Below, piece by piece: positions 14,288 to 58,461 of a stretch of DNA of 64,000 bases. This DNA is from an uncultured virus (IMG/VR IMGVR_UViG_3300025296_001443). Its lineage: Duplodnaviria > Heunggongvirae > Uroviricota > Caudoviricetes. The notes beneath the pieces were generated by a model. The model saw only the letters and a list, made by a program, of their open reading frames with translations, was not told the DNA's origin and did no database searches. The stretch lies in IMG/VR virus record IMGVR_UViG_3300025296_001443. The stretch is one strand, 5' to 3'. The stretch's first letter is position 1, and each line of letters starts with the position of its first letter. A program made the position numbers and the translations under genes.

Positions 14288-14858
14288 ATTCTATCCACCC
14301 TGTTAAAATATATTTATTATTAGAGATAGGACTATTGCCTCTGTGAGTATGTGTAAACTGCGCAGGCCATATTAATAGTTTACCTTCTTCAGGTTTAATT
14401 TTTATATTTTGATATAAAAATTCAGTTTTTCCTCCTTCTTCTACATCATTTAAATATAACATAAAAGCACATACTCTATCTTTACGTGCAGTATGATCAT
14501 TTTCACAATGCCATTTATGATAACCCTCACCAGGTTTTGTTTTTTGAAGAAGAACATTCCTAATAGAATGCGAATGTAATTCATTTAAAATAGAATATTT
14601 ATTTCTGTAATGAATATAACAATTATCAAACATTTTTTTTAAAAAATTTCCAAGATTTGCATTTAGAGGAAATGAACTATCGTAATATTTTTCCCCTATT
14701 ATATCCACTGTCATATCTTTTGTTTTATAATTATTTCTTTGATGGACATATTTTAAATCTTCTAATATTTTAAAGTATTCTATAAAATTATTACAAAACT
14801 CTTTATCAAAAGCTTGATAAAAAATTCCAATATGATTATCTAAAATTTCTATTTTCAT
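14280..14858 (-). CDS. 2OG-Fe(II) oxygenase, prolyl-4-hydroxylase-like
   Basis: WHCE, MLYLNDVEEGGKTEF, WPAQFTHTHRG, KYILTGW. Confidence 0.9.
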   Translation of the reverse strand: MKIEILDNHIGIFYQAFDKEFCNNFIEYFKILEDLKYVHQRNNYKTKDMTVDIIGEKYYDSSFPLNANLGNFLKKMFDNCYIHYRNKYSILNELHSHSIRNVLLQKTKPGEGYHKWHCENDHTARKDRVCAFMLYLNDVEEGGKTEFLYQNIKIKPEEGKLLIWPAQFTHTHRGNSPISNNKYILTGWIEYV

Positions 14859-15480
14859 TTAATCCAAACAGTAATGTATAACTTATTCTACGCTTATTTA
14901 ATTGTTTTTTAACAGCTATTTTATCTGACTTATGTAAATACATCCCATTAAAAAATACAGCTCTATTATTCTTATAATTAACTTTAACTGGTTCAATTTT
15001 TTTATCTTCTAAATATTTTAGAACTTTTTCATGATTACCATTCCAATCTTTTCGCTCCCAACCTGAAGGTGGAAAAATTTCGTAAATAATTAATCCATTT
15101 AATTTTGGATCTGTAGATATATCGTCATCTGATACCCACACATTTAAATTAATAAGTGAAGGATCTGAATGTAATCTTACTCCATTACTGTTATTTGCAT
15201 ATATAAAACTCCATCCTCTTTTAAATTCTGGTAATATTTTTATTTTTTGTTTTAAATTTTTAACAATTAAATCAGTAATAGAATCAGTCTCAGGAAGATA
15301 GTTTATAGCTTGATATTTTTTTTCTCCATAGTAATCATGAAATTTTGATTCATAAAGCATTCTGTTTTTTAAAGTAAATAATGTAGCTTGAGTAAAGAAA
15401 TTATCAACTACAGTTATTTGATTATTTTCTAAAGATTTATTAATTATATCCCAATCATTTCTAGATTTTAAAGCGTTCAT
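14836..15480 (-). CDS. 2OG-Fe(II) oxygenase-like protein
   Basis: HSD, NRAVFF...LHKSD, RRISYTLLF. Confidence 0.7.
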   Translation of the reverse strand: MNALKSRNDWDIINKSLENNQITVVDNFFTQATLFTLKNRMLYESKFHDYYGEKKYQAINYLPETDSITDLIVKNLKQKIKILPEFKRGWSFIYANNSNGVRLHSDPSLINLNVWVSDDDISTDPKLNGLIIYEIFPPSGWERKDWNGNHEKVLKYLEDKKIEPVKVNYKNNRAVFFNGMYLHKSDKIAVKKQLNKRRISYTLLFGLNENRNFR

Positions 15481-16124
15481 TTTCCTTCTTTAAAGTCTGA
15501 AGGAAGTCCTAAATGAGGTCGAGTATCATATTTATTTGTTTCAGAATCAGGGGTATTAACATTATTGTAATGTAAAAAAACTTGTCCACAATGTTCTCCT
15601 TCAAATGCTTCCCTCCAATGCTCCAATAATTCTCCTTTATAGATCAACATATCTCCCGGGTTTAATTCTATTTTAATACCAGGATTATTTCCAGGTTTAT
15701 ATTCCCCTTCTCCTGCCAAACCTGGGTTGGGGTCTAAATAAATAGCCCATAATTCACCTCCAAGATTCATAGTAGTTGATATCTCACAACTAAATCTGTC
15801 TTTGTGTCTTTTTAATATATCACCTTTTTTATATATTCTTGCATAAGAATAAGTAGGTATTAATTCTAATTCAGTTTCTTTTTTCATAATAGGTAACATT
15901 CTTTCTAATAATGTTTCCATAGCAATATCAGCATAATAAGAATATGTTTCTGGAACTTGTTGATCATTCCATACTCCCCAATCAGTATTATAAGGAGATA
16001 TATATTTAGTATCATAAAAGGTTCTAGCAACCTGTCTTTTCATTAAAAAATATTTATAAATAAAATCTGCTAATTCTGGAGAAATAGCTTGTTTTAATAC
16101 TTTATAATTTTTTTCTTTAAACAT
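15477..16124 (-). CDS. 2OG-Fe(II) oxygenase-like protein
   Basis: PTYSYARIY..GDILKRHKDRFSCEIS, EHWRE, QVFLHYN. Confidence 0.8.
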   Translation of the reverse strand: MFKEKNYKVLKQAISPELADFIYKYFLMKRQVARTFYDTKYISPYNTDWGVWNDQQVPETYSYYADIAMETLLERMLPIMKKETELELIPTYSYARIYKKGDILKRHKDRFSCEISTTMNLGGELWAIYLDPNPGLAGEGEYKPGNNPGIKIELNPGDMLIYKGELLEHWREAFEGEHCGQVFLHYNNVNTPDSETNKYDTRPHLGLPSDFKEGK

Positions 16125-16759
16125 TATTTAAAAGGTTCTCCTAAATGCCATACAACCAAAGAATATCTATTTCCCGAAGTTACTGGTTTAACTCTATGCC
16201 AAATAAAAGAAGGAAAAACAATTATAGTTCCTCTCTTTTCAGTATGAGGACATATATCTGAAGGATTTGGATCATCTTTATTTCTATATTGAAATTCAAG
16301 TTCTCCTCCTTCATAATCTGATTTATCAGAAAGTACACAAATAGTGGATAATTTTCTTATTTTTCCCCTCATCTCTTTTTGTTTATCAGAAGGATAAGGA
16401 ACATTCCAACTATCAGTATGCCAATCATAATATTGATTAAGTTTATATTTAGTAAATTGTGCTGCTTCTGAAAAATTCCATTCAAAATTCCAATGTGCAT
16501 TCATATTGGCTATATGTATATAAGGATGTATTTCTTTATAAATCCATCTTTCATTTAACCATACTATATTTGAATCTCTTTTCTTTTTTAAATGTTTTAA
16601 ATCAGCTTCATTTAAAGGAATTCCTTTATTTGCTTTCTCACTTACTCCACCAATTAAACCAAGACTTTCTTGTTGTAAATTTCCATACTTAATAATATCA
16701 TCACACAATTTAGGAGATAAAGCATTTTCAAAATACCAGTAATAATTAAATAGGTTCAT
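16124..16759 (-). CDS. 2OG-Fe(II) oxygenase (PKHD-type hydroxylase-like)
   Basis: YDWHTD, RKLS, YEGGEL, VFPSFIWHRVKPVTSGNRYSLV. Confidence 0.9.
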   Translation of the reverse strand: MNLFNYYWYFENALSPKLCDDIIKYGNLQQESLGLIGGVSEKANKGIPLNEADLKHLKKKRDSNIVWLNERWIYKEIHPYIHIANMNAHWNFEWNFSEAAQFTKYKLNQYYDWHTDSWNVPYPSDKQKEMRGKIRKLSTICVLSDKSDYEGGELEFQYRNKDDPNPSDICPHTEKRGTIIVFPSFIWHRVKPVTSGNRYSLVVWHLGEPFK

Positions 16760-34676: not shown

Positions 34677-35037
34677 TTAAGTCCTCCGTTGTACTTAATT
34701 TTTTATTTAGTATACCTTGAAAACATGACTGTGTAAAGGTCGGAAGTAACATTTCGCTAATAGGATTTTTATTATGGCCAGTAGACCATGATAGACAGGG
34801 AGTTCCCCTCTCATCCCATGCTACTAGAGCATATCCTTTAATATCCATTTTATCAGTTATCTTGATACATGCCTCATGAAAAGCATTAATTACTTGATCA
34901 TTTTGTGCTTTTTCGATTTGTTTAGGACTAGGAGGCTTTTGTTTAATAGGTCTATACCTATTAAGAGTAATAATGTTTGTTTTTATAGCTGCGTTTCCGT
35001 TGTTTCCTCTGTTCATAATCTTCATCTTCGGGATCAT
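34669..35037 (-). CDS. Hypothetical protein
   Basis: Overlaps the terL end; real start may be the later Met (MNRG). Confidence 0.45.
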   Translation of the reverse strand: MIPKMKIMNRGNNGNAAIKTNIITLNRYRPIKQKPPSPKQIEKAQNDQVINAFHEACIKITDKMDIKGYALVAWDERGTPCLSWSTGHNKNPISEMLLPTFTQSCFQGILNKKLSTTEDLNE

Positions 35038-36472
35038 CAGGATGAGCGACTAAAAAGCCATCACGAATACGCAATAAAGCTTGTACACACGTATCATGAA
35101 CATCATCAAATTTTCCATAAGGAAAAGCTGCTGATTCCTCTATGACACTTTTAGTCCAATCTTTATCTAAAGTAAACACTAATCCGCCTTCGAACATTGA
35201 AGCTACCGAGTGCGTTCTAGATACCTTATCTCTATCTGGACTATAAGTAATTACAGGAACTCCTGATCTTCTCATATCTTGTATTAAACTCTGGCCACTA
35301 GCTCTTTTTTCTATTAATACTTGATCAGGATACCATTTCTCATAAGCCTCTTGTGATCTTTTTCTTAAATCGGGATATTCTAATCTTTCTTTCCATGCGT
35401 CTAATAATAAACATGCAGCATAAGGTTTATTTTCTTTATCTCTTTCTGTATAAACTCCCCAGGTAGTACATGCAGAGAAGTCAGCACTATCTTTTGTAGA
35501 GAAGGCAGTATCATAAGATTGAAGAACATATGATAAAGTTGGAATTTTATCTTCTGGATATATATTCCACCAATCTCTTTTAATAATGGATCCTTCATCA
35601 CCTGAAGGTTGCTGTTGATAAAGAGCTGACCATACTCGTTCTCCTACTGTACTTTTAATTTTTTCTAAAGCTTCTTTAGGATAAGCTTCAGGCCATAACG
35701 CATTTCCTTTTGAATCAATAGCAGGTAAATCTAAAATTTTCCAATCTTCTTTACTTTCATTTAAAATATGACCAGCTAAATCATCTTGGTGCCATCTAGT
35801 TTGAATTATAATTATTTTTCCACCTGGCTGTAATCTAGTATAAGCGACTGACTTATACCATTCGATTAAATTTTTTCTTTGAACTTCTGACTCAGCGTCC
35901 TCTCTTCCTTTTATAGGGTCATCTATAATTAATAAATGCGCACCTCTACCTGTAATTGCTCCTCCTGCACCGACAGCTGAATAAGTTCCACCTTGCATTG
36001 TATGGAATCTTTTAACAGAAGTTGAATCTGCTCGAAGGCCCACGTGTGGAAATACATTATTAAAGTCTGGACTAATAATTTGATTACGAACCTTTCGTCC
36101 AAAGTCATCTGCTAGTTCTTGAGCATAAGTAGCCTGTATAACAAATTCATTAGGATTATTTCCTAGATACCAAGCTGGAAAGAACTCTGAGCATAACATT
36201 GACTTTCCATGTCTTGGTGGCATAAAAACTGCTAGTCTAGTTATTTCTCCTTTTTCTAAAAGTTCTAGATTTTGAGCAATTAATCTTATATGAGCAGGGT
36301 CCTTATATTGAGGATATATATGTGTAGCATATTGTAATAAAGTTTTACGAGCTTGAGAAGTAGATAGTATCTTATTTAAATGTTCTACTACTTCACCCGC
36401 ACGTTTATCTTTAGTTTTTTTGTATATCTGAATAGCTGACTTTAACTGTTCCTTGATCTGGAGTTCTTGCAT
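34961..36472 (-). CDS. terL: Terminase large subunit
   Basis: MPPRHGKS Walker A, LLIIDDP Walker B, QTRWHQDDL, YQQQP, SYDTA, IEKRASG, DDVHD nuclease residues. Confidence 0.95.
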   Translation of the reverse strand: MQELQIKEQLKSAIQIYKKTKDKRAGEVVEHLNKILSTSQARKTLLQYATHIYPQYKDPAHIRLIAQNLELLEKGEITRLAVFMPPRHGKSMLCSEFFPAWYLGNNPNEFVIQATYAQELADDFGRKVRNQIISPDFNNVFPHVGLRADSTSVKRFHTMQGGTYSAVGAGGAITGRGAHLLIIDDPIKGREDAESEVQRKNLIEWYKSVAYTRLQPGGKIIIIQTRWHQDDLAGHILNESKEDWKILDLPAIDSKGNALWPEAYPKEALEKIKSTVGERVWSALYQQQPSGDEGSIIKRDWWNIYPEDKIPTLSYVLQSYDTAFSTKDSADFSACTTWGVYTERDKENKPYAACLLLDAWKERLEYPDLRKRSQEAYEKWYPDQVLIEKRASGQSLIQDMRRSGVPVITYSPDRDKVSRTHSVASMFEGGLVFTLDKDWTKSVIEESAAFPYGKFDDVHDTCVQALLRIRDGFLVAHPDDPEDEDYEQRKQRKRSYKNKHYYS

Positions 36473-37262
36473 TTTGTAATCCTTGTCCTACTGCTCCTTT
36501 ATTTCTATAAGCTTCAAATCTATCTGCTAATTTAGTAAATGGCTCTACTTCTTTTCGTACAATTTTTTGCCAGTGTAAAGAAGATTGTCCTATCTTATCT
36601 AAATACCAAGCTAATTTAGAAGCATCAGCAAATCTTAAATTGATCATTTTTTGATGATGAAGGTCTCCTTCTTCTTTTGGGTTCCCTTCTTTATACACTC
36701 TACTTTTAAAAATTTCGTCATCATTATTTCCTGTAATGTCAGCTCTATCATGTAAAACTTTAACTCCTACATCTTGCATGATATCTAACATGTAAGCAAT
36801 CTCTGAGAGCCATGCATCATTTTGTCCATGTAAACTTAAATGATCTAGACATCTAAACCAATCCCAGGGTACAATAGGAAAGATACTGTAAGGATGACCA
36901 GTGGATTCCTCAATCCGGAGCAACTTAAACTGGCCATCAAACTTTCCTATCTCTGAATCCCAATCTTTAGTTTGCATTATAGCATCATCATTAAAGATCA
37001 TGATCCATGTACCTTGAGCGTATACAGAGAGGGCATTATTGTATCTGTGTAAATTTTCGTAACCTAATCTTTTAAACTTAATTACTGATCTAGCAGGATG
37101 TTTAATATCTTTTAAAAAATCTATACTTTCTTGATCATCTTCATCTACTCCATAAAGTAGTTGAATTTTACTAGGATCTTTAGCATTATCTAATAATGAT
37201 TCTGTACATTTCTTAATTAAAGGAATTCTTTTACGAGTAGGAAGTAAAACTGATATAGACAT
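36411..37262 (-). CDS. Glycosyltransferase family 2-like
   Basis: ISVLLPTRKR, YGVDEDD, IFNDD (DxD-like), NDAWL; overlaps the terL start. Confidence 0.75.
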   Translation of the reverse strand: MSISVLLPTRKRIPLIKKCTESLLDNAKDPSKIQLLYGVDEDDQESIDFLKDIKHPARSVIKFKRLGYENLHRYNNALSVYAQGTWIMIFNDDAIMQTKDWDSEIGKFDGQFKLLRIEESTGHPYSIFPIVPWDWFRCLDHLSLHGQNDAWLSEIAYMLDIMQDVGVKVLHDRADITGNNDDEIFKSRVYKEGNPKEEGDLHHQKMINLRFADASKLAWYLDKIGQSSLHWQKIVRKEVEPFTKLADRFEAYRNKGAVGQGLQNARTPDQGTVKVSYSDIQKN

Positions 37263-37381
37263 ACCTCACCTTATTTTGTTTATGATACTAAATAAACAAA
37301 AATATTTGCCCACCGTCCTCCCTGTTTCAAGTAAGTCTCCCTACCATTTAGTGAAACAACCCCTAAATTACTGAATAGAAA

Positions 37382-37594
37382 TTACTTTTTCTTTCGTAGT
37401 GAAACTATTAAAGTTCCGTAATATCCAGTAATAAGGTTCAGCGACAAAATTATTTTTTCTAATATCCAAGATATTAATAAACTTGCATATCTAAACAATT
37501 TTAGTATAAGCTGCACTATATAAATGGGAGTTAAAGTTACTCCCATTAACAATAAGCATATACTCACTGTTATAAAATCTAAAGTTTTTTCCAA
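37382..37594 (-). CDS. Hydrophobic small protein (uncertain)
   Basis: TM-like ORF with TTG start. Confidence 0.3.
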   Translation of the reverse strand: MEKTLDFITVSICLLLMGVTLTPIYIVQLILKLFRYASLLISWILEKIILSLNLITGYYGTLIVSLRKKK

Positions 37595-37612
37595 TAATTT
37601 AATTCGTTAAGT

Positions 37613-37801
37613 TTAAGAAAGAAAAATGATTAATATTATAAGAACAGCTAGTGCTATACCACAGCTCCAGCTAGTTGATTTACACACAGGACACATTCCG
37701 TCTTTCCATAATTTTGAAGAAAAAGGTATATATTGACACATATTAAAAGATTTAAGCCAAGACATTAAACTTTTAATTTTATTTGTTATTTTTAAAATCA
37801 T
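37613..37801 (-). CDS. Small membrane protein (start revised to MILKITNK)
   Basis: AAGGAG precedes the ATG at 37801; CPVC motif and C-terminal TM. Confidence 0.45.
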   Translation of the reverse strand: MILKITNKIKSLMSWLKSFNMCQYIPFSSKLWKDGMCPVCKSTSWSCGIALAVLIILIIFLS

Positions 37802-38061
37802 AAGATACTCCTTATATTTTTTCAGTAGGCTACTATTTAAAAAGCAAAATGTACAGCTATAAAATTTATATACATTTAATTCATTCATCACTCTTTCTCT
37901 ATCTTTCTCCCTAGAAAGAGTCAAATCGCTTTTTAAACTTAATACGATTTTTTTTAATTAAACTTAATACGATTTTTAAATACTATCTATTTAAGATTAG
38001 CTTTTTATTTTAAGATTAGTTTTTTTTAATTAGTCTTTAAGAAAAAAAAAAAGAATAAAAA

Positions 38062-38095
38062 AAAACGCGTACTTAAATTAATAAGTACGCGTTTT
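38062..38095 (-). terminator. Rho-independent terminator after the desert gene
   Basis: AAAACGCGTACTTA-6 nt-TAAGTACGCGTTTT inverted repeat followed on the minus strand by long T runs. Confidence 0.75.
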
Positions 38096-38111
38096 AATTC
38101 GAATAAATAAC

Positions 38112-38504
38112 TTATAAGTTATTTATTCTAGTTTCGAAAAATTTAATATTCTCTAATATTTCGTTAGATACTTTATTAGTTTTTACGTATTCTTTATTAG
38201 AATTTAATAAGTCTAAATATAGATTTTTTTTATTTTTATCTAAATAGCTATTTAAATCGATTAATAAATTAACTTTTTTAAAACGATTATTTTTCGTAGT
38301 ATCGTACTCTATATCGATCTTACGATAATCGTTATTAAAAGCTTTCTCTATATTAGTCGAAAATTTAGATTTTTCGTAAATAAAAAAAGACTTCGTTTTA
38401 TCTCTTTTATTATTAAATAATCTAAATAAAATTTTCTTATTAGCGTATTCTCTAAAAGATAACGCGATTTTATTTTCGATTATTTTATTTTCTATTTTTT
38501 TCGT
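38112..38504 (-). CDS. Unannotated 130-codon paralogue of 39024-39404 with probable ACG start
   Basis: Hand translation (T/M)KKIENKIIENKIALSFREYANKKILFRLFNNKRDKTKSFFIYEK...AFNNDYRKIDIEYDTT...ETRINNL-stop; ungapped similarity to 39024-39404; no ATG/GTG/TTG in the frame. Confidence 0.85.
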   Translation of the reverse strand, partial: TKKIENKIIENKIALSFREYANKKILFRLFNNKRDKTKSFFIYEKSKFSTNIEKAFNNDYRKIDIEYDTTKNNRFKKVNLLIDLNSYLDKNKKNLYLDLLNSNKEYVKTNKVSNEILENIKFFETRINNL

Positions 38505-38693
38505 ATAGTCTATCTCTCTCGCTTTCTAATTATTCTTAAAATATTTAAAAAAATATTTCTTTTTAAATAATTAATAGAATATTAGTTTATTTTTAAAGAA
38601 ATTAAAAGAAAAAAAACGTTTAATTCTCGTATAAGTAGAAACTTTTTTATACTCGTTTCGTTCTCGTTTCGTTCTTATTATTCTCGTTTTAGT

Positions 38694-38768
38694 TTAAATC
38701 GTAATATAAGAATAAAGTAATATTAAAAATATCGTAAATATTAAATTTCTAAAATAGTATAAAAGCAT
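38694..38768 (-). CDS. 24-aa hydrophobic micro-protein
   Basis: MLLYYFRNLIFTIFLILLYSYITI after GAAAGTAAAA; its ATG is the only TG/CA between 37924 and 38856. Confidence 0.5.
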   Translation of the reverse strand: MLLYYFRNLIFTIFLILLYSYITI

Positions 38769-38895
38769 TTTTTACTTTCGTTAATTAATTTAATTAATTT
38801 ATTTATAATTATTTTTTTATACTAAAAAACGTTTTTATTATTTTATCGTAAGAAATTGTTTAGAGCTTTTTCTAGTAATTTTTTTTTATTTTTCT

Positions 38896-38990
38896 TGATC
38901 CCTGCTGATCCCTCTTGCGCCTTTCCTCCTTGATCACCGTTGATCAAGCACACTTCAACAAGCAACTAGCATCAAGCCACATTTCAACAA
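38896..38990. repeat. Repeat block 1: phased TGATC and TTCAACAAG motifs
   Basis: TGATC at 38896, 38906, 38931, 38941; TTCAACAAG twice. Confidence 0.8.
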
Positions 38991-39011
38991 GGGAGCGATT
39001 TCTCGCTCCCT
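38990..39011 (-). terminator. Hairpin/terminator after 39024-39404
   Basis: AGGGAGCGA-GAAA-TCGCTCCCT on the minus strand, weak U-tract. Confidence 0.6.
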
Positions 39012-39023
39012 AATTTAGGATTA

Positions 39024-39404
39024 TTATAACTGTGATATAATTTGCTCGAAGTATTTTTGATTGTCTATAATACTTTGAGGTACTTTATTTTTTTTGATAA
39101 ACTCTCTGTTAGATGAAAGCATTTCCTCATAGAGCTTCTTTTTAGATTTATTGATATACTGAGGCACATCTACTAACACATTAGCTTTTTTAAATCTAAG
39201 GTTAGCGGTTGTATCGTACTCGATATCCACTTTTCTATAGTCATTATCGAAGGCTTGCTTGATAGTTGAACTAAGTCTAGCTTTTTCATAAATGTTGAAA
39301 GACTTAGATTTATTTCTTTTAGGATTGAACAATCTAAAAAGAACTCTTTTGTCTGCTATTCCTCTAAACGATAGAGGTATTTTGTTTTCTACTAACTTTG
39401 TCAT
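39024..39404 (-). CDS. Basic hypothetical protein with NPKR...YE...DIEYD motif
   Basis: ORF track; own promoter-like element and terminator; paralogue at 38112-38504. Confidence 0.75.
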   Translation of the reverse strand: MTKLVENKIPLSFRGIADKRVLFRLFNPKRNKSKSFNIYEKARLSSTIKQAFDNDYRKVDIEYDTTANLRFKKANVLVDVPQYINKSKKKLYEEMLSSNREFIKKNKVPQSIIDNQKYFEQIISQL

Positions 39405-39439
39405 ATATTTCTACTTTCTGTTTTAGTTAATATCTGTAC

Positions 39440-39470
39440 AGTATATATATTTTTCTACACAATTAAACAA
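39440..39470 (-). promoter_or_regulatory. Sigma70-like promoter (TTGTTT-17-TATATA)
   Basis: Same element recurs upstream of several early genes. Confidence 0.5.
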
Positions 39471-39505
39471 AATAATTATTATATTGTTGTTGATATATAT
39501 ACTCC

Positions 39506-39607
39506 TGATCCCTGCTGATCACTCTTGATCCTATAATCTTTTGATCCCTGCTGATCACTCGGGCTCAAGCACATTTCAACAAGCCAATTTCAACAGCCTT
39601 CAACAAG
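39506..39607. repeat. Repeat block 2: phased TGATC and TTCAACA motifs
   Basis: TGATC at 39506, 39516, 39526, 39542, 39552; TGATCCCTGCTGATC shared with block 1; TTCAACA at 39575, 39589, 39599. Confidence 0.8.
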
Positions 39608-39620
39608 GCCGGGTTGCTTG

Positions 39621-40070
39621 CTACTGAATGTTGTGGTCCTTTGCAATCTTGTCTAGGTATGAGGACATCTCATCAGCGTTCATAGCATCAAGTGTTGAGT
39701 GTTGTACTTCTTTCTTCTCAATCAAAAACCCTAATAACTGCGACTTCAATCTTATCGCATTGACTGCGGCTGAATACTGCTTCTTGCCACAAGCATCAGC
39801 ATACACTTTGTCAAGCTTTTCAACCTCTTGTGACACAGACTCACTTGTCAAGCGCCTAGCATCAACCCTCAATCTATCGATGTACTGGATAAGTTTATCC
39901 TTCTTTAAGTTGCGGGCAGCTTGTACGTGAGCTGAAGTTTCAGAATAACCTGCGTCAACAGCAGCGTTTCTCTTACCTTTTCCACTAGCTATACCCTCAC
40001 AGAACTTCTTTTCCATGTGGGTTAAGGTTGCCTCATTTGTTTGATGTAATTGGTTAATAGTTATCGCCAT
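39621..40070 (-). CDS. terS: Terminase small subunit
   Basis: LT..EKKFC, AAVDAGYSE.SA.V.A.RNLK HTH, AAVNAIRLK.QLLG. Confidence 0.8.
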   Translation of the reverse strand: MAITINQLHQTNEATLTHMEKKFCEGIASGKGKRNAAVDAGYSETSAHVQAARNLKKDKLIQYIDRLRVDARRLTSESVSQEVEKLDKVYADACGKKQYSAAVNAIRLKSQLLGFLIEKKEVQHSTLDAMNADEMSSYLDKIAKDHNIQ

Positions 40071-40363
40071 ATTTATCCTAATATAGCGATTATTTCAACA
40101 ATGTAAATTAAAGATTACAAGCCTTAATTATATCTTTATCTTCGAAGTAGTGATCATGAAATTCTCTTCCCTCATTCATAATATATAAATAATAACTACC
40201 AAGGTTACTATCGTGATTTAATTCGAAAGTCCCTACCTTTTTATTATTATAATAGATATTACCTTTTTCTTCATCGTAAGAAGTTTTATCTACCACTCCA
40301 CCTTTTTTATTTTTAAGTATAAACATTTTATTCTCCTTTTTAGTTATTTTTAATTAATTTAAA

Positions 40364-40392
40364 AATATAGAATAGATAACAATATTAAACAA
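40364..40392 (-). promoter_or_regulatory. Sigma70-like promoter
   Basis: TTGTTT-17 bp-TATATT. Confidence 0.65.
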
Positions 40393-40693
40393 TATTAAAA
40401 AGTTTCTATTATAAAATAAGTATGATAAAATACTATTTCATCTGGGTTTAATTTAGTTTTAAAAGCAATAGTAGTCCAATATTTATTATCGTAAAATTCT
40501 GAAATAGTTATATTTTTAGATTCATCGTAATAAATAGTTAAAATAGTATCGTCTATATTGTTATTATATATTGCTATCTTATTTTTTTCGTTATAAGTGG
40601 CGTCAAATGTCTCTCCTAGGCATTTTTCTTCCAAGGACTCTATATATTTTTTAGTATTCATAAGTTCTCCTTTCTATATTTATTTATTTTAAA

Positions 40694-40722: not shown

Positions 40723-41488
40723 CTATCGTTTTATTTTGACTTGTGCGTCTACTCTTTGAATGTTAGTATTTATTTGCTTTTGTAACTCTCTATGCATATT
40801 ATCGATATGCTCCATAGCTTTATATCTCTTTCCTGCTTCATCAGTATTACTTTTCTCTCTATGGATAAGAGCATCAGCAAGTATTATATCGAAACCTTCA
40901 GCAGTAAAGTAAACATCGTAACCTCTATAAATAGCCCGATGAGTAATTACTCTTAAACCATATTTAGTTAAGTCTTGAGGTTTTTCATTATAATCAGCCT
41001 TATAGATGATATAGTTTTTTCCAAAGTCTTCAAGATACTTTTTCAATTCATCATCTGTAATACTCCCTTCTTCATTCCTTGTTTCTTCTCGTTGTAACCA
41101 AGATAAAGCTACAACATCAGAGATACTATTTTTTGGCATTTAAACCCTCCATTCTAGCCGGTATCACGACTTCGTTATCACATTTATTACAACATACTCC
41201 ACTCTCTTTTACTGGTTGTGGATTAGCCCCAAACTCAGTAAAAAGTTTATTACATATAACACAAGTCTTTTCGTCAAGATTGATTTTATTCTCTTTACAG
41301 AATTTATCAATCAATTCTTCTATCGACCAAGGACTTATATCATCTTCACGAGCCATACGAGATAACATCGAAGTATCTCCCCAACTCCCTTCCATGTAAT
41401 CAGTTTGATATTTAATATCCTTAAATAACATTTTAAGTTTATCTATATCCATAACTTTCTCCTTTTTATTAATTTAACTTAATTTAAA

Positions 41489-51532: not shown

Positions 51533-53374
51533 TTATTTTGCGTTACCCCAATTGTCTCCTTTCTCGACATCCACCTTAAGAGGCACTTTCAACTTTACGC
51601 AAGTTTTCATGATTTGTAAAGCTTCTTCAAAACATTTTTGTTTATTCCAAGGAATTGAAAAATCTAATTCATCGTGAATAGTTAATTTTAAATCAATCTC
51701 ATCTAATAAACCTGCTTCATATATTTTTATCATTGCAGATTTTGTAATATCTGCTGATGAACCTTGAATTAAAGCATTTAATGCAGTATGAGTATAAGCT
51801 CTTTTAAGTTCTTGTTTAGGATAATGGGAATAGGCTTCTGATAAAGAATAGGCTCTTTCTCCCCAACTATCTCTAGGTTCCCATAAATCAAATCTTCTTT
51901 TTCTTCCTAATAAAGTTTTAATGTAACCTCTACTCCCTGCTATATGCGATACTTGTCTTGATAGTTCTCTAACAAAAGGTACTCTACTATGATATTGATT
52001 AAATAATTCATAAGCTTGATCTTGTTCTAATCCTAATTGTGCTGCTAATTTTTTATTTCCCATACCATAAAATAATCCTAAATTAATAGTCTTGGCTTGC
52101 TTTCTTTCTATACCTGCCATATTAGCTACCATTTGATGAAAGTCTGTTTTATCATTTCTACAAAATTCTTTTTGGACTTGTAAAGCACTCTTCATATCTT
52201 TAAGACAAGCATAATGTATTAATACTCTAGGTTCTTGTTGAGAATAATCAGCACAATGCCATTCTGAATCTTCTTCAGGTATAAATAAACTTCTGATCAT
52301 CGGACCAAGTTCAGGGTCTCTAGCTGGTACTTGTTGAAGATTAGGATATTGAGAACTAAATCTTCCTGTAACTGTACCCATTGGATTAAAACTACAATGT
52401 ATACGACCATTAACAGATTTATCAATAATCATATTTTTAATAAATGTATTTCGTATCTTGTCTAATTTACGAATATTTAAAATACTTTGACTAACATCGT
52501 CCACTTGAGTTTCCAACCAAGCTGCAGTGAAAGATGGAGTACCTTTTGCGGTGTAGTTATATTTAATGTTATTTTTATCATATGCTTCCTTTAAGGAGGC
52601 GTTTGCCCATACATTAACTATGGTTCCTCCTAAAGTATTTAGTCGTGATTGCATATGAATTTGTTTTTTTTCTAATTCGTTATATAATTTATGTGCTTTA
52701 TCAACATCAACTCTTACTCCTTTTTTTCTCATATGAAATAGAACAGGTATAAGTCTTGATTCAAATTTAATTATATCTTCAACACCTTCTCTCTTTATTC
52801 TTTCTTGTTGTTTTTGATATATCTGTAAAGTAAGTAAAGCATCTTCTTTAGCATATTCACTTACTTCATTAGCATGTAATCTCCATAAATTTTCTTTTAC
52901 TTTAGCACGTTTACCAAACTTATATAAGACAGCTTGTTCGAGTTCAACTTCGTATTTAGATTTTCTTAAATAAAACTTTGCTAAAGAGTTTAATGAATAC
53001 TTTAATTTATTTTCATCAAGTAGATGTTCTATGGAAAGTACATCTAAAATCTCGTGACTACGAGTAAGGGTAAGTCGCTTATCCAGTGAATAAAGCCACT
53101 CTACGTCATACATTGCGTTAGCAAATATAAGCTTTTTCTTCTTTGAGTAAATATATAATAAAAAACTAATTACTTTTTCTTTATTTAAATTTCCACCGCC
53201 TTGATGTTTAATTGGAAAATATTCATTATATCCACTATCAGTTGCAATAGAAATACTTGCTATAAAACCATCTTTTCTAAAACCACCTGGTCCCATTGTT
53301 TTAAGATTAGGATCACAGGTCTCTGTATCTATTGCTATTAAATTTGCTTCATCTATTTTATTTACATTAAACAT
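51533..53374 (-). CDS. polA: DNA polymerase family A (3'-5' exo + pol; Leu at the 762-equivalent)
   Basis: IDTET, TGRFSSQYPNLQQVP, DYSQQEPR, AKTINLGLFYGMG, NALIQGSSAD, TIHDEL. Confidence 0.95.
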   Translation of the reverse strand: MFNVNKIDEANLIAIDTETCDPNLKTMGPGGFRKDGFIASISIATDSGYNEYFPIKHQGGGNLNKEKVISFLLYIYSKKKKLIFANAMYDVEWLYSLDKRLTLTRSHEILDVLSIEHLLDENKLKYSLNSLAKFYLRKSKYEVELEQAVLYKFGKRAKVKENLWRLHANEVSEYAKEDALLTLQIYQKQQERIKREGVEDIIKFESRLIPVLFHMRKKGVRVDVDKAHKLYNELEKKQIHMQSRLNTLGGTIVNVWANASLKEAYDKNNIKYNYTAKGTPSFTAAWLETQVDDVSQSILNIRKLDKIRNTFIKNMIIDKSVNGRIHCSFNPMGTVTGRFSSQYPNLQQVPARDPELGPMIRSLFIPEEDSEWHCADYSQQEPRVLIHYACLKDMKSALQVQKEFCRNDKTDFHQMVANMAGIERKQAKTINLGLFYGMGNKKLAAQLGLEQDQAYELFNQYHSRVPFVRELSRQVSHIAGSRGYIKTLLGRKRRFDLWEPRDSWGERAYSLSEAYSHYPKQELKRAYTHTALNALIQGSSADITKSAMIKIYEAGLLDEIDLKLTIHDELDFSIPWNKQKCFEEALQIMKTCVKLKVPLKVDVEKGDNWGNAK

Positions 53375-53838
53375 TAATTTAATTTTCCTAAAATAAAATT
53401 AATATTTATATAAGCCCAATCTCTATCTGTCATACACCATAATCTTTCAGCATCTTTATGAATATACTTTTCTCCAAATACAATATTTTTAGCTGAAGTA
53501 TTTAAAAGTAATTTAACACAATGAATACAAGGACTCACTGTAAGATAAACAGTATGAATATCATACACATCTTTACATTGAAGTAATGCGTTTTGCTCAG
53601 CATGTATTGCTTCGCATTTATCTAAATCTTTTCCACTTGTGGAATTTGCTCCTTTACAAGGATTATCTAAACAATGAGAAAATCCACTAGGATTTCCATT
53701 ATATCCAGTTGCTAATACATGATTTTTTTTATTTACTAAAATACAACCAACTTTTCTTCTGACACAAGTTCCTCTTTCTGAGACTAATAAAGCCATTCTT
53801 AAAAAATAAAAATCAGCTGGTTGTCTATAATTAGCCAT
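53374..53838 (-). CDS. dCMP deaminase
   Basis: C.RRKVGC, TGYNG, HAEQNA, SPCIHC. Confidence 0.92.
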   Translation of the reverse strand: MANYRQPADFYFLRMALLVSERGTCVRRKVGCILVNKKNHVLATGYNGNPSGFSHCLDNPCKGANSTSGKDLDKCEAIHAEQNALLQCKDVYDIHTVYLTVSPCIHCVKLLLNTSAKNIVFGEKYIHKDAERLWCMTDRDWAYININFILGKLN

Positions 53839-54664
53839 ATATTAAATAATCTAATCTTTCTGAAAGTAATCCATTAGGTCTTAATTCGTTACCTGTTACA
53901 TCTGCCATTTCCCATAAAATATCAATAAATTTAGTAGGAGTTTTTTTATACTTTTCAATAAGATTATTTAAATTAAAATCTTTATCATCATAATTACTTT
54001 TAAATATATTATCTAATTTACTAAAATCATTTTCATAGACATGTCTACTTCCTGCTTGTATATTTAATTCACCTAATTTACATTTTAATCCACGTAAATT
54101 TAACCAACAAATTATATAAAAAGAGATTGCACTAAAGTTAAAAGTATCATAAGGAGTACCTAACCAGCCGTCATTACTTCTCATACTAGCAATCGTATGT
54201 AACCATAACTCATCACTTGCTTCTCTTAATAAAAATTGTAAAGATAAAGTACAAGGAATATCTTTACTTGATCTAGGATTCTCTCTCCATATATTTATAA
54301 CAGCTTGTCTACTATCATTATCTTTTATTAAAGTATCAATTATATATGAAGTTTGAGTAATGATTTTAGGACCATAAGCTCCAAAAAAAGTTACACCATC
54401 ATCACTAAATCTTTTAACTCCATCAACATATTTAGATACACTTGCAACATCATTTCTACCGCTTAACATCCATGCTGCTTCACCAAACATAAAACTATAA
54501 GATAATTTTCTTTCAGGTATAGTTATAATAGGGTCTTCCATACCTATTTTAAAAGAGTGATTAATTTTTTCTTTTATATTTAATCCTCTAGGTTTACACA
54601 TAAACTCAGAACGATTATAAATATCCTCTAACATTTTTTTATATCTAATATTGGTTTCTTTCAT
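53831..54664 (-). CDS. Thymidylate synthase homologue, predicted dCMP hydroxymethylase/methylase
   Basis: AYGP, DSRQAV, DIPCT catalytic Cys, MRSNDGWLGTPYD with Asp at the dUMP(Asn)/dCMP(Asp) specificity position, HVYE. Confidence 0.8.
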   Translation of the reverse strand: MKETNIRYKKMLEDIYNRSEFMCKPRGLNIKEKINHSFKIGMEDPIITIPERKLSYSFMFGEAAWMLSGRNDVASVSKYVDGVKRFSDDGVTFFGAYGPKIITQTSYIIDTLIKDNDSRQAVINIWRENPRSSKDIPCTLSLQFLLREASDELWLHTIASMRSNDGWLGTPYDTFNFSAISFYIICWLNLRGLKCKLGELNIQAGSRHVYENDFSKLDNIFKSNYDDKDFNLNNLIEKYKKTPTKFIDILWEMADVTGNELRPNGLLSERLDYLIYG

Positions 54665-54666
54665 AT

Positions 54667-54873
54667 TTATTTTTGATCCTTTTCATCTAAATAAGATTTA
54701 ACTAATATTTTTATTAATTTAGACATTGAAAATCCTCTTTTCATACAATGTTTTTTTAATCTAGCGTGTAGTTCAGCTCCTAAACATAAACCCATAACTC
54801 CATATCTTCTTGTTGGACTTATAAGTTTTGGTTTTTTTGGCTCTACCAGTTTATCTATTTCATTTATATTCAT
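54667..54873 (-). CDS. Ribbon-helix-helix DNA-binding protein
   Basis: Short beta strand then ELHARLKKHC..RG.SMSKLIK.LV..YL. Confidence 0.55.
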   Translation of the reverse strand: MNINEIDKLVEPKKPKLISPTRRYGVMGLCLGAELHARLKKHCMKRGFSMSKLIKILVKSYLDEKDQK

Positions 54874-55062
54874 TTAATATTTCACTTTAATTTTATTAGT
54901 ATCTATCCATTTTGCTAAATTATTTCCTTTTTTATTTTTATACATACATAAAACATTCATTTTAGGAAATTTAAGAACTAAAGATTGTAACATTTTTTTA
55001 AAAGACATTGCCTCTATCGTTTCTTCTTTATCTTTAGTTTTAATTTTATAAGTGTATCGCAT
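54874..55062 (-). CDS. Hypothetical protein
   Basis: EAMSFKK, YKNKKGN; coupled ORF. Confidence 0.45.
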   Translation of the reverse strand: MRYTYKIKTKDKEETIEAMSFKKMLQSLVLKFPKMNVLCMYKNKKGNNLAKWIDTNKIKVKY

Positions 55063-55618
55063 AATTTTTCATAATTTTATTAGTGAATTCATCTAATTTG
55101 TATCCATCTTTAAACATATCATATCTCATAAAATCTTTTCTGTCACGCAGAGGCGATAGCGTGGATAAAAAATTACTTCGATCAGGTTTACCGAACCAAT
55201 GATAGTAATAATAATCTACTACTTTATCAATATTATGATATTCTTCATGTCTTAATTCTCTATTAATTCTATGATTTTCTTTTACTCTTTCAATATCTTC
55301 TGGAATACACCATACATAAAAAGTTTTTTGATCTTTTAATCTATTATATAAAAACCTAGGATTATAACTAGGTCCATTTCTATAAATATAAGCATAGCAT
55401 TGTTCACTTGGCCAATGTCTATCTAATAAAACTAATTTTCCTTCTAATTTTTTTCTAATAGCATATCTAGCACTAGCTGTATGCCACAATTTCATATTCT
55501 TATGAACTCTTAAATGCATATAATAAGAGTTTTTATATTTCTTTTTTATATGATTAATTAAAGTAGTTTTACCTACACCATCTGGTCCATCAAAAATTAT
55601 TATTCCATTAGTAGACAT
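55046..55618 (-). CDS. P-loop nucleotide monophosphate kinase (thymidylate kinase-like)
   Basis: IIFDGPDGVGKTT, LLDRHWPSE..Y. Confidence 0.85.
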   Translation of the reverse strand: MSTNGIIIFDGPDGVGKTTLINHIKKKYKNSYYMHLRVHKNMKLWHTASARYAIRKKLEGKLVLLDRHWPSEQCYAYIYRNGPSYNPRFLYNRLKDQKTFYVWCIPEDIERVKENHRINRELRHEEYHNIDKVVDYYYYHWFGKPDRSNFLSTLSPLRDRKDFMRYDMFKDGYKLDEFTNKIMKNYAIHL

Positions 55619-56652
55619 TTAAAAAATTCTTTCGTTCTTTCTTTCGACCAAAATTTATTTCTTAAAATTTCAGCTTGATTATTAAATACTTTAATTAACT
55701 CATCACTGCTACAATTTTCTAACTTTTCAAGATCATGATAAAAACCTAATACTTTAGTTTCTTCAGGATGACCATAAATAATACAACCAGCATCTAATGC
55801 CATTTTATATCTTACTCTCCACCAACCACTCCCTTGTAAAGTATGATAATGTGGTGGACTTATTATTCCCCATATTTTACAGTACTCGGCAAATAATTCA
55901 TGTTCTTTTAATCTTATCTGTCCTTCTTTTATATTTCCATAAGTTTTCACAGGCCAATTAAAATATTGATGTTTTAACCAGTTTTGTTTACTTACTAAAC
56001 TAGCACAAGCCCATTCTTTTTTTCTTTCGTGAGATTGACTTGAAAATAAATTTATTAAATCAGGATGATCTAAATGTAAATCACAATAAATTGAAGGATC
56101 CCAATTTATAATTTCTTTAGCCCTCATTCCTAAAGTTTCATAATTACCACCATCATATGCTGGAATTAAAAGTTTATAAGGCCATTCTTCAAAAGCGAAT
56201 GTATCTACAAAATCTTCTATTTCTTTTTTATAAGCTTGAGCCTCATCCCAATTAACTTTTCCTACTGGATTTCCTGCTTTACTTAATTTTTTCCATATTC
56301 TCCAATGACCTCTACTAAAAGTTCCAAAACCACTTACTGAATCTTTAGTTTGCCAATCATCTATTGATACAATAGCATCGGGTCTTTTAATTAAAGTATA
56401 TGCTGCACCATACCAGAAACGTGCTGATAAACTATTAGGACCAAATACAAATACAAAAACTTTATCATATTGAGAAACATTTTCTCCCGGGACGATTGCT
56501 TTTTGAGTTACATCATGCCCTAAATCTTTTAAAACTTTTGGTAATATTCTAGCTGATGTAGATATATTTAATGTACTTCTTGCTGTACCTACAGCTAATG
56601 CATTAAAGCCTGTTATTAATATTTTCATTTTGTTCTTTCTCTTCCTCAACAA
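55600..56652 (-). CDS. GT-B glycosyltransferase, T4 beta-glucosyltransferase-like (putative DNA glycosyltransferase)
   Basis: Likely start MKILITG; L..LGHDV, YDKVFV, SIDDW acidic motif, GWWRVRY..ALDAGC; lies inside the nucleotide-modification cluster. Confidence 0.6.
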   Translation of the reverse strand: MLRKRKNKMKILITGFNALAVGTARSTLNISTSARILPKVLKDLGHDVTQKAIVPGENVSQYDKVFVFVFGPNSLSARFWYGAAYTLIKRPDAIVSIDDWQTKDSVSGFGTFSRGHWRIWKKLSKAGNPVGKVNWDEAQAYKKEIEDFVDTFAFEEWPYKLLIPAYDGGNYETLGMRAKEIINWDPSIYCDLHLDHPDLINLFSSQSHERKKEWACASLVSKQNWLKHQYFNWPVKTYGNIKEGQIRLKEHELFAEYCKIWGIISPPHYHTLQGSGWWRVRYKMALDAGCIIYGHPEETKVLGFYHDLEKLENCSSDELIKVFNNQAEILRNKFWSKERTKEFFKCLLME

Positions 56653-57049
56653 TTTGATCTATATTAGGAGCTTGCCAACCTTTAGGTTTAATTACATCAA
56701 ATGCTGTTCCTCGTTTTTTTGATTTACTTTTAGCTCTTACTTTTTTCATATTAGCTGTTTGTACTGCTTTCCAAGCTTTTTCAAAAGGTAAATTAAATAA
56801 CCAGGCAGTACCTAAAGCTATATAAACTATATCAATAAGAGCATCTAATGCTGCAGCATCGTCTTTTTTAGTTATAGCTTGAGTATATTCAGCTAATTCT
56901 TCCATTAAAAAAGAAGTTCTAAAATTAACTAATTCAGAATCATCGGGTATTCCTACTTTTTCATTCTTTTTAAAACCAAATTTATTATGAAATCTATTTA
57001 TATCTCCTAATAAATCTTCGTGTAAATTAAAAATATCTGAATTTTTCAT
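56603..57049 (-). CDS. MazG/PRA-PH-like nucleotide pyrophosphohydrolase
   Basis: FH.KF, LMEELAEY, DALIDIVY.ALG, VQTANMKK, KPKGW. Confidence 0.85.
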   Translation of the reverse strand: MKNSDIFNLHEDLLGDINRFHNKFGFKKNEKVGIPDDSELVNFRTSFLMEELAEYTQAITKKDDAAALDALIDIVYIALGTAWLFNLPFEKAWKAVQTANMKKVRAKSKSKKRGTAFDVIKPKGWQAPNIDQIVEEEKEQNENINNRL

Positions 57050-57211
57050 TTAACACTCTTACTATTTTGCCAAATGTTATTATTAAATACTTTAATCAAC
57101 CGGCTAAGTTCTACATTATATTCTTTACCTTGTTTATTGGTAAACATCACCGTACAGTCGTCATGACACGGTAATTTATTTCCCTTCCAAACTAATGTTA
57201 CTTTATCTTTA

Positions 57212-57406
57212 TCATTCATATTTTTTAAATGCCATTCTCCAAAGCCATGATCTTGTAATAGATACTCCTGTAAATATTAAAGCAATTCCAATACTATCCA
57301 TAATGGTTGGATATAATCCAAAAAATGGAAAAATATAAAGCTGTATTAATATAGCTAAAATAAATCCTGATCCCACATCTATAAAACTTTCTATAAAACT
57401 TCTCAT
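57212..57406 (-). CDS. Small two-TM membrane protein
   Basis: SFIES..DVGSGF, FT.VSI.RS..WR..F. Confidence 0.55.
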   Translation of the reverse strand: MRSFIESFIDVGSGFILAILIQLYIFPFFGLYPTIMDSIGIALIFTGVSITRSWLWRMAFKKYE

Positions 57407-58461
57407 AATAAACTTTCTTGTGTCGGTGCCTTTCTAAAATCTATAATTTGTAAATCTTCTTCTTTTTTATTCTTCTCTTTAATACTACTTTTTATTATTC
57501 TCGATACATATTCAGCGACAGGTGGCATTACTCCTCTTGCAATTTGTGATCCTATACTAGAAGCTGGTCCTTCCCATTTATAATCTACTGGAAAACCTGC
57601 CATATAAGCTAATTCTTTATGACCAAATAATCTATCTTGAGTAGGATGTATATAAAATCCTCCTGCTATAACTGGTATATGTGCATTTTCTTTTAATCTC
57701 CATTTCATAAATTGAGGTCTCCCTTTTACTCCTCCACGCATTCCTCCTCTCACCCAAGTTTCAGGTGGATTATACCTTTCCCATGTTACTCTTAAACTTT
57801 CTCCTTGTTTACAATATTTAAGATAAGGTTTTTCATTTTCTCCTAACTTCATTAAATGTCCTACATCTGATCCGTGTTCCTTTTTAAATTGAGCTAAAAC
57901 TTCTCCAGTTGTAGGTAATGGTTGAAAATTTAAAGAACGTGCATTTAATCCATATTTAGTTGCTATAAAGAAAAATCTTTTTCTACTATGATTTAAACCA
58001 GTAAAGCCTCCATCAATTAATAAGTGAGTAACTTGATAATTTAATTTATTTGCTTCTTTAGTTAATTCCATAATCATTGGATATCCTCCATTTTTAGAGT
58101 AAATTCGAGGAACTGATTCAATAGCTAAAGCTGTAGGATTTAATTCTTTTAAAAGATTAAAACTATTTCTCCAACACGCAATTCTAGGATCATCTCTCCA
58201 TGCTCCTGCTCCTTTCTGTCCTCCTCCTAAATTAGACCAGGGAGCACAAGGAGGATTACAATAAACAAAATCAATTTTATTTTTAAATTTTTTTCTAGGC
58301 CATTCTTCTTCACCTTCATATACAGGAATATTTGGAAAATTAGCTTTAAAAGTTTTTTTATATAAACCAGGTTTCATTTCAAAATGAGCTTCAACATCAA
58401 AATGTTTACTTACTCCTAAAGTAAATCCACCTGCAAATATGTAACTTCCTAATGCTTTCAT
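57403..58461 (-). CDS. Divergent DNA cytosine-C5 methyltransferase-like enzyme
   Basis: PPCAPWS (motif IV), ESV (VI), HSRKRFF (VIII), E.A..AGFP.DY (IX); motifs I (YIFAGGF) and X (QIARGVMPP) are atypical. Confidence 0.8.
   Translation of the reverse strand: MKALGSYIFAGGFTLGVSKHFDVEAHFEMKPGLYKKTFKANFPNIPVYEGEEEWPRKKFKNKIDFVYCNPPCAPWSNLGGGQKGAGAWRDDPRIACWRNSFNLLKELNPTALAIESVPRIYSKNGGYPMIMELTKEANKLNYQVTHLLIDGGFTGLNHSRKRFFFIATKYGLNARSLNFQPLPTTGEVLAQFKKEHGSDVGHLMKLGENEKPYLKYCKQGESLRVTWERYNPPETWVRGGMRGGVKGRPQFMKWRLKENAHIPVIAGGFYIHPTQDRLFGHKELAYMAGFPVDYKWEGPASSIGSQIARGVMPPVAEYVSRIIKSSIKEKNKKEEDLQIIDFRKAPTQESLL

Follow-up and report, generated by a model that had tools for sequence, protein, structure and literature searches.

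Selection or mutation at the DNA level can shape oligonucleotide content apart from coding, as in restriction-site and motif avoidance and in viral CpG depletion; these cases are genome-wide and statistical, and no amino acids are lost. In phages T5 and BF23, a defined part of the chromosome, the first-step-transfer DNA, encodes small early proteins and must avoid targets that occur freely elsewhere in the genome, according to the passages of PMC10644984 on this region. The targets in T5 are restriction or CRISPR sites of 4 to 8 bp, whose absence is partly due to chance. A stricter exclusion is present in a 64,000-nucleotide stretch of DNA from an uncultured virus of the Caudoviricetes (IMG/VR record IMGVR_UViG_3300025296_001443; the window), in which a zone at positions 37923 to 38856 is almost free of the dinucleotides CA, TG, CC and GG. 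Unlike restriction-site avoidance, the exclusion is local and near-absolute and removes seven amino acids, and unlike the T5 and BF23 case it concerns four dinucleotides over about 1 kb, with the encoded proteins recoded. The likeness to T5 and BF23 rests on the site-free sequence; first entry is a feature of T5 and BF23.

No description of such a zone was found in the literature, judged by the titles and abstracts of full-text search results and by passages of the papers cited here. As a phenomenon, the exclusion zone is categorically new, and its mechanism is a separate question.

The dinucleotide-free zone and its recoded gene

The zone comprises 934 bp with a GC content of 0.18 (versus 0.30); its limits are a TAAAAT box on one side and, on the other, the region upstream of the next gene. 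It contains one forbidden step (CA, TG, CC or GG) in 933, where 81 are predicted from its own base composition and the window-wide rate is 15.4%; targets common elsewhere in the window are excluded from it. Only one pair of gaps longer than 60 bp between forbidden steps exists in the whole window (37923-38765 and 38767-38856), and the step separating them, the sole one in the zone, is the ATG of a 24-codon hydrophobic open reading frame (ORF; 38694-38768). The edges are sharp to tens of bases, with a forbidden-step density of 0.205 in the adjoining block (38857-39023) versus 0.001 in the zone.

The excluded set is equivalent to 5'-CM-3' on either strand, i.e., C is never followed by A or C. 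It is closed under reverse complement, a property of 52 of the 1,820 possible four-dinucleotide sets by our own count. The exclusion also holds in noncoding DNA, across codon boundaries and for about 140 bp past the terminator. Together with the reverse-complement closure, the noncoding extent speaks for duplex DNA, and not protein or mRNA, as the level at which the rule applies. Among 26 pooled zones (20,569 bp), CC occurs 0 times, GG 4 times, CA 40 times and TG 37 times, CG is enriched 4.4-fold, and there is no additional trinucleotide constraint. The exceptions occupy functional positions, namely, ATG starts (of the main gene, of a hydrophobic ORF of 18 to 24 codons and of mini-ORFs) and a ACGAGAACA repeat upstream of the main gene. 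An earlier note on this DNA, made from the sequence alone, had taken a single gene as the recoded unit; the recoding stands, but the unit is a zone of about 0.55 to 1.2 kb across relatives, with noncoding DNA and up to three genes.

In the window, no frame in the zone other than 38112-38525 exceeds 50 codons. This frame, on the minus strand, runs through 137 codons between stops and carries the recoded gene (38112-38513), which has 133 codons if counted from ATA (38513-38511) or 130 from ACG (38504-38502) and ends in TAA (38114-38112). The residues of its translation are limited to A, R, N, D, E, I, L, K, F, S, T, Y and V; Gly, Pro, Met, Trp, Cys, His and Gln are missing. The same 13 amino acids suffice for 29 distinct recoded coding sequences (3,818 codons), in which GCA, GCC, TCA, TCC, ACA and ACC are never used. 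Codon boundaries contain five forbidden steps in the recoded set (CA 1, GG 2, TG 2) versus 312 of 2,232 in 18 normal-composition copies. Of all possible single substitutions, 42% would introduce a forbidden step, and among synonymous changes the share is 55%, but the 248 variable columns show one in only 11 of their 593 allele states; on the evidence of these alleles, purging of forbidden steps is ongoing. Residues are replaced by functional stand-ins, Pro by Ala, Asn or Thr and Gln by Lys, Asp or Asn. The reduced alphabet, the six unused codons and the rarity of forbidden alleles bear out the proposal of the earlier note that a constraint on DNA overrides protein sequence. More generally, the sequences compared support a rule on DNA that overrides the choice of codons and amino acids, the form of the ribosome-binding site and, for some of the lineages, the start codon.

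Judged by its conservation, the 38112-38525 frame is a real gene. The frame is open over the homologous span in all 37 recoded copies (two are truncated solely by contig ends), so that the intact frame described earlier extends to every copy, and median dN/dS is 0.234 (range, 0 to 0.587; 403 pairs with dS above 0.05). Stops, frameshifts and neutral evolution, the marks of a pseudogene, were not found among these copies. A profile search retrieved at least 1,933 protein clusters at E values below 0.001, a lower bound because only the 7,999 candidates sharing most words were scored; most of the listed matches are about 130 amino acids (aa) long and derive from ENA, JGI, Tara, NCBI and Logan. AlphaFold2 performed poorly on a first, shallow alignment (A1; pLDDT 65.8), but the recoded protein of the window was modeled from a diverse alignment with a pLDDT of 91.7 and a pTM of 0.83. 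The protein has no Pfam or PHROG family, ESM Atlas gave features only, and searches with Foldseek against PDB and BFVD and with VIA-align in wide mode gave no fold match (best Foldseek E 6.2, Z 4.3, BFVD E 1.2). The expectation that gene callers would miss the gene holds for this window, where the frame is absent from the ORF list, but not for ATG-bearing relatives, which stand in protein databases.

A first set of related loci in IMG/VR numbered 42, and 38 of them have the same kind of zone; the remaining four stop 82 to 272 bp past the normal-composition paralogue. Gene order is constant: small terminase (TerS), optional normal paralogue, recoded gene, optional small ORFs, glycosyltransferase and large terminase (TerL). 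Both paralogues are present at 18 loci and in the window, TerS is followed directly by the recoded gene at 13, five loci begin in or just ahead of the zone, and six are cut before the recoded gene. The profile search for every protein gave 42 representatives. Dozens of IMG/VR contigs have a zone at this position, between TerS and TerL. Distant lineages, 45 to 53% identical to the distant-homologue query and on contigs with a GC content of 0.28 to 0.38, exclude the same four dinucleotides. Full-length distant homologues span the range between full recoding (P0128) and normal composition (P0135, P0152 and P0155); the normal ones have Pro at the “KFP.S” and “NPK” positions, where recoded ones have Ala, Ser, Asn or Thr. 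One family member (P0001) has an internal 24-residue duplication, and in another (P0127) the first ~75 residues of the recoded protein are joined to the C terminus of an N4/N6 methyltransferase.

The arrangement is a tandem one in the clade of loci L084, L099 and L103, where a first unit of TGATC block and normal paralogue precedes a second unit made up of a TGATC block, a peptide ORF of 20 codons and another paralogue. This latter paralogue is partly purged, with the GG of the Shine-Dalgarno sequence, ATG and Gly, Pro, His and Met codons left over. In addition, other genes within zones are recoded in the 13-letter alphabet, namely, a 61-aa ORF at locus L038 (2200-2385) and an 89-aa ORF at locus L045 (2416-2685), neither with a Pfam family. 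The rule therefore belongs to the locus and not to one gene family. Neither a zone nor a homologue of the recoded protein was found in the Pelagibacter phages HTVC027P (41 kb scanned) and HTVC023P (38.7 kb scanned).

Start region, paralogue and other features of the locus

A GG-free form of the ribosome-binding sequence of this phage had been proposed ahead of the recoded gene, and such a stretch, AGAAAGCGAGAGAG, is present at 38514-38527 (minus strand), its AGAAAG ending 8 nt ahead of ATA. Elsewhere in the window, AGAAAGGAG occurs seven times on the gene strand and never on the opposite strand, and 33 of 81 ORFs have GGAG no more than 22 nt upstream. The recoded frame has no ATG, GTG or TTG, as had been noted, because TG is absent. 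The in-frame candidate starts after AGAAAGCGAGAGAG are ATA (38513-38511) and, three codons on, ACG (38504-38502). An in-frame ATG is kept as the lone exception in 49 of 56 distinct recoded-copy start regions, mostly 7 to 13 nt from AGAAAG; the other seven, this window included, lack ATG, and all of them have ATA at 8 to 9 nt and ACG at 17 to 18 nt. At locus L010, ATA is the first codon following an in-frame TAG, and the L084 clade retains AAAGGA at the place equivalent to AGAAAGCGAGAGAG.

ATA is a near-cognate codon, in frame and at the canonical distance from the ribosome-binding element, and spacing favors it over ACG as the putative start. The ACG start of the earlier note was itself deduced and is not confirmed as stated. 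At loci L032 and L036, the hydrophobic-peptide ORF lacks ATG and has ACG ATT where relatives carry ATG, so ACG may still serve as the start of the recoded gene. Loss of ATG looks, from these comparisons, like the last step of TG purging. The idea that the DNA rule overrides start-codon choice fits seven of the 56 start regions but fails for the 49 in which ATG survives.

The normal-composition paralogue (39024-39404, minus strand) encodes 126 aa from an ATG start and contains 43 forbidden steps. It aligns without gaps to the recoded protein, as reported before, with 58% identity over 124 residues. Normal copies have a median dN/dS of 0.187 (143 pairs) and form one clade with a support of 100/100 on a long stem, placed in a weakly supported polytomy (80/79) with recoded copies in a tree flagged for composition bias. 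The normal paralogue is absent at the 13 loci where the recoded gene directly follows TerS, and the recoded gene is thus the constant one. The pairing of paralogues emphasized earlier therefore describes the window, where both copies are present, but not these loci; where both occur, they may be expressed at different times, as that note proposed. Two recoded copies, at loci L024 (2920-2921) and L039 (4586-4593), have a AAAGTGGATATCGA patch identical to normal paralogue sequence, which suggests occasional gene conversion between tandem copies.

A 404-nt contig from one metatranscriptome run corresponds almost exactly in extent to the normal paralogue (39009-39411, six differences) and hints at a short separate transcript, although DNA can occur in such libraries. 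No RNA contig over the recoded gene was found among the contigs of the searched runs, a comparison of contigs that says nothing about expression. At least half of the sampled words of 36500-40500 are present in 16 runs, 10 of which carry no flag as a possible source. Within the zone (37940-38600), two independent DNA runs have fragmented contigs of reduced depth (for example, 3 to 4 versus 9 to 19 in X7), for which strain variation or an AT-rich sequencing bias may be responsible.

Each paralogue has one of two homologous repeat blocks upstream of it. Block b (38893-38991), directly upstream of the zone, is rich in forbidden steps and contains TGATCC/TGATCA hexamers and CACATTTCAACAAG repeats, and block a (39503-39595), of the same kind, lies between TerS and the normal paralogue. 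On the downstream side of TerS, the blocks hold nine TGATC hexamers between them, clustered over about 50 bp in each block and spaced about 10 bp apart; the base after TGATC is always A or C. Clustered TGATC hexamers adjoin a small-terminase gene, as in a P1-type pac site, and the blocks could be a packaging or operator site.

Within the zone, the putative promoter at its upstream edge (38840-38867, minus strand) would consist of an AGCTCT box (38862-38867) and the TAAAAT box (38840-38845); it was read from the sequence and from a comparison of eight loci, and a simple sigma-70 scan gave no more matches than in shuffles. The hydrophobic ORF (MLLYYFRNLIFTIFLILLYSYITI; 38694-38768, minus strand) has counterparts of 18 to 24 codons at the equivalent place in many relatives, the distant L084 clade included (4616-4678 in L084). 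Tandem ACGAGAAC-type repeats (38652-38689, minus strand) lie upstream of the main gene; ACGAGAAC has its only exact match in the window there and a one-mismatch match at 41082-41093, and many relatives carry ACGAGAACA at this site, one of the few tolerated CA exceptions. An intrinsic-terminator-like hairpin (38062-38095, minus strand; 14 pairs, 5 of them G-C) begins 17 nt past the stop of the recoded gene, is followed by a T run and uses allowed steps only, in agreement with the terminator claimed earlier; a scan found two such sites in 2.2 kb versus 0.4 expected from shuffles. Two copies of TCGTATTAAGTTTAA, found nowhere else in the window, mark the downstream end of the zone (37933-37972, minus strand), and distant clades have conserved repeats of a similar form, CGTAT(T)AAGTTT. 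The next ORF past the zone (37613-37924, minus strand) encodes a Cys-rich protein of about 91 to 103 aa with a hydrophobic C terminus and no family match, and a TTGAC just upstream of it marks the exact end of the zone.

All long ORFs of the window are on the minus strand. PHROGs and Pfam identify TerS (39621-40070), TerL (34961-36472), portal, capsid, tail and lysis genes and a replication module at 48 to 64 kb (AEP primase, UvrD-type helicase, family A DNA polymerase and a separate exonuclease), besides small unknown genes. TerS belongs to PF03592, the N-terminal domain of TerL is T4 type, and TerL is 43% identical to those of HTVC027P and HTVC023P. The region had no DNA or protein match in the INPHARED phage collection, and Rfam and tRNA scans of it found nothing. 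Among five consecutive genes at 13628-16759 (minus strand), four match PHROG 2OG-Fe(II) oxygenase or “ferrochelatase” families and one has no match; a class I methyltransferase gene (13029-13628) comes after them.

Possible causes of the exclusion

The cause to which we lean, although we would stop short of calling it probable, is avoidance of a phage-encoded, neighbor-specific DNA modification at 5'-CM-3'. The ~0.9-kb cassette would be self-contained, with its putative promoter, hydrophobic-peptide ORF, repeats, gene of 130 to 133 codons and terminator between the small-terminase region and the next operon, and selection would keep it free of 5'-CM-3'/5'-KG-3' on both strands. A DNA-level agent that reads one base and its neighbor would be the most economical cause. 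The cassette would stay plain DNA while the remaining chromosome carries nearest-neighbor-specific base modification, possibly because host proteins must read or transcribe it whatever the modification state of the genome. With a rule so constant across divergent lineages, an agent passed down with the phage is a better fit than host restriction systems, which vary.

The candidate enzyme is a conserved C5-cytosine DNA methyltransferase (57403-58461, minus strand; PF00145, E = 1.6e-26, 93.9 bits versus a 22-bit cutoff), which would act on C where an amino base (A or C) comes next. Homologues are encoded in all five zone-bearing records tested, and none was found in the whole HTVC027P record. 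The gene is part of a cluster (53374-58461, minus strand) that also encodes a dCMP deaminase (PF00383, E = 2.6e-21), a divergent ThyA-like protein, a P-loop kinase-like protein, a 350-aa protein and a MazG-like protein and that looks like a DNA base-modification module. A thymidine hypermodification pathway might join the candidate methyltransferase. Such clusters are reported in HTVC023P-type clades in the relevant passages of PMC9599517, conversion of 5-hydroxymethyldeoxyuridine (5-hmdU) within particular sequence contexts is described in part of PMC8989533, and the phage T-dioxygenases with NTC or NTG neighbor preference described in PMC13229309 give dinucleotide-level specificity a precedent, as far as those passages go.

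Several observations weigh against modification avoidance. Modification of the phage DNA is itself putative. The best solved relatives of the methyltransferase, M.HaeIII and M.HhaI, are remote (E of 3e-8 or weaker), and none of its 120 listed homologues has a named specificity. Its co-occurrence with the zone is confounded by phylogeny (five records versus one). Outside the zone, the observed/expected ratio is 1.00 for CA/TG and 1.13 for CC/GG, with no deamination footprint, so that a genome-wide trace of CM methylation, which was also considered, was not seen; CpG depletion is common to the window and HTVC027P, which lacks the enzyme. In the thymidine branch, the ThyA-like gene (53831-54664; Pfam E = 4.7e-16) scores 45.5 bits versus a 327-bit equivalog cutoff, 55046-55618 was matched through its P-loop only, and Pfam, NCBIfam and PDB sequence searches with the 350-aa product of 55600-56652 gave no family and no aGPT-Pplase-like match, leaving the pathway incomplete as detected. 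Furthermore, T modification at TG leaves the CC/GG exclusion unexplained. All other genes, including those for replication, tolerate the steps, which makes the need for plain DNA an assumption. We dropped the idea, taken from P0127, of an N4/N6 amino-methyltransferase that would target the second base of CM; neither the window nor 103 loci contain a homologue, and P0127 is therefore probably a chimeric contig.

Avoidance of a nuclease or other defense is unlikely, in our estimate, but accounts for part of the same evidence. The zone would be DNA exposed before protection, for example by entering first as in T5, and would therefore lack the targets of a nearest-neighbor-specific nuclease, its products protecting the remaining genome. 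It is indeed a promoter-to-terminator cassette of small genes without assigned families, and antidefense genes are often small. One or two tolerated sites would fit nucleases that need two sites, such as McrBC, but we know of no nuclease with CM/KG dinucleotide specificity, and the rule is constant across divergent lineages, and presumably hosts, unlike the specificities of restriction systems. In the portion of PMC10644984 concerned, T5 and BF23 resist restriction-modification, CRISPR and Ssp if the first-step-transfer region is without recognition sites. The zone adjoins TGATCA/TGATCC blocks just past TerS, resembling the P1 pac hexamers TGATCA/G described in the corresponding part of PMC10028697, and a packaging end could lie there. 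The zone is, however, mid-map, between the early and late modules. Moreover, the PF03592 TerS and the T4-type TerL domain presumably indicate headful packaging, in which case packaged ends would vary.

Targeted hypermutation, in which a context-specific deaminase-like process in a transcribed region turns CA and CC into TA and TC, and TG and GG into TA and AG/GA, while selection preserves function only, is improbable. The zone is AT rich and starts at a putative promoter, ATG-to-ATA replacement in seven start regions is the predicted G-to-A change, and a deaminase-fold protein is encoded in the window; that protein is of the ordinary dCMP-deaminase type, however, and sharp edges, extension past the terminator, stable retention of the ATG and GAACA exceptions across lineages and replacement of residues by functional stand-ins instead of transition products all argue against such a process. 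We give still less credence to a constraint on RNA, under which CA, CC, UG and GG must be missing from the transcript, perhaps as a way past an endoribonuclease. Messages that lack ACA and so resist MazF are a precedent, and the zone begins at a putative −10 box and spans the transcribed cassette, but the set is closed under reverse complement, as few four-dinucleotide sets are, about 140 bp of the zone lie beyond the terminator, and no Rfam family was found in the region. A decaying duplicate or an assembly or sequencing artifact can practically be dismissed. The absence of a canonical start and the loss of contigs and depth in the zone would fit such an origin, but all copies are open with a dN/dS of 0.23 over 403 pairs, at least 1,933 protein clusters from several sources match the family, words of the stretch occur in 10 runs not flagged as possible sources among the 16, and the fold prediction is confident (pLDDT, 91.7).

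Three simpler accounts were rejected. General avoidance of restriction palindromes is contradicted by GATC, TCGA, ACGCGT and GTAC, all of which are present inside the zone. Duplex stability or unwinding does not fit, as the most stable steps, CG and GC, are allowed and CG is enriched. Codon or tRNA explanations fail because the rule also covers noncoding DNA and codon boundaries.

Comparison with known systems

In its fullest form, which we regard as possible yet doubtful, modification avoidance would mean that an abundant marine phage group modifies its chromosome at 5'-CM-3' and keeps one ~1-kb cassette chemically plain, driving the 13-amino-acid alphabet, the GG-free ribosome-binding site and, in some lineages, AUG loss, with the normal paralogues as a control. 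The locus would provide a natural example of working proteins stripped of seven amino acids by a rule that acts on duplex DNA and not on protein or codon usage. The zone would also mark the target context (CM/KG) of a DNA-level agent in a phage group abundant in ocean metagenomes, so that a hidden specificity, of a modification or of a nuclease, is open to direct testing.

Context-specific phage hypermodification, comprising 5-hmdU-derived bases, methyltransferase/TET/glycosyltransferase systems and T-dioxygenases, resembles the putative agent in depending on neighbors and in modifying part of the T or C residues (PMC8989533 and PMC13229309, in the passages concerned). Relatives of this phage group carry hypermodification clusters, according to the corresponding part of PMC9599517. 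The passages of these papers describe no modification-free island, and the modification proposed here is putative.

The phased TGATC hexamers next to the small-terminase gene recall P1 pac, for which the relevant section of PMC10028697 describes seven TGATCA/G hexamers inside pacA. Unlike in P1, the hexamers read TGATCA or TGATCC and form two blocks on the downstream side of TerS, and no Dam-type enzyme was found in the window.

Non-AUG initiation has bacterial precedents in the AUU of infC and in AUA and ACG as weak starts, and the known cases are regulatory. The recoded gene is similar in lacking ATG, GTG and TTG and in having an in-frame ATA at the canonical distance, but here the loss of ATG looks like TG purging. 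Gene callers that require ATG, GTG or TTG miss real genes in such zones.

Laboratory proteins have been built from reduced amino-acid alphabets. The recoded protein is comparable, with about 13 residue types and a predicted fold without Gly, Pro, Met, Trp, Cys, His or Gln. Recoded and normal paralogues, and full and partial purging, are paired natural experiments on reduced-alphabet folding. Unlike the laboratory proteins, this is a natural family under purifying selection, with unconstrained paralogues available for direct comparison.

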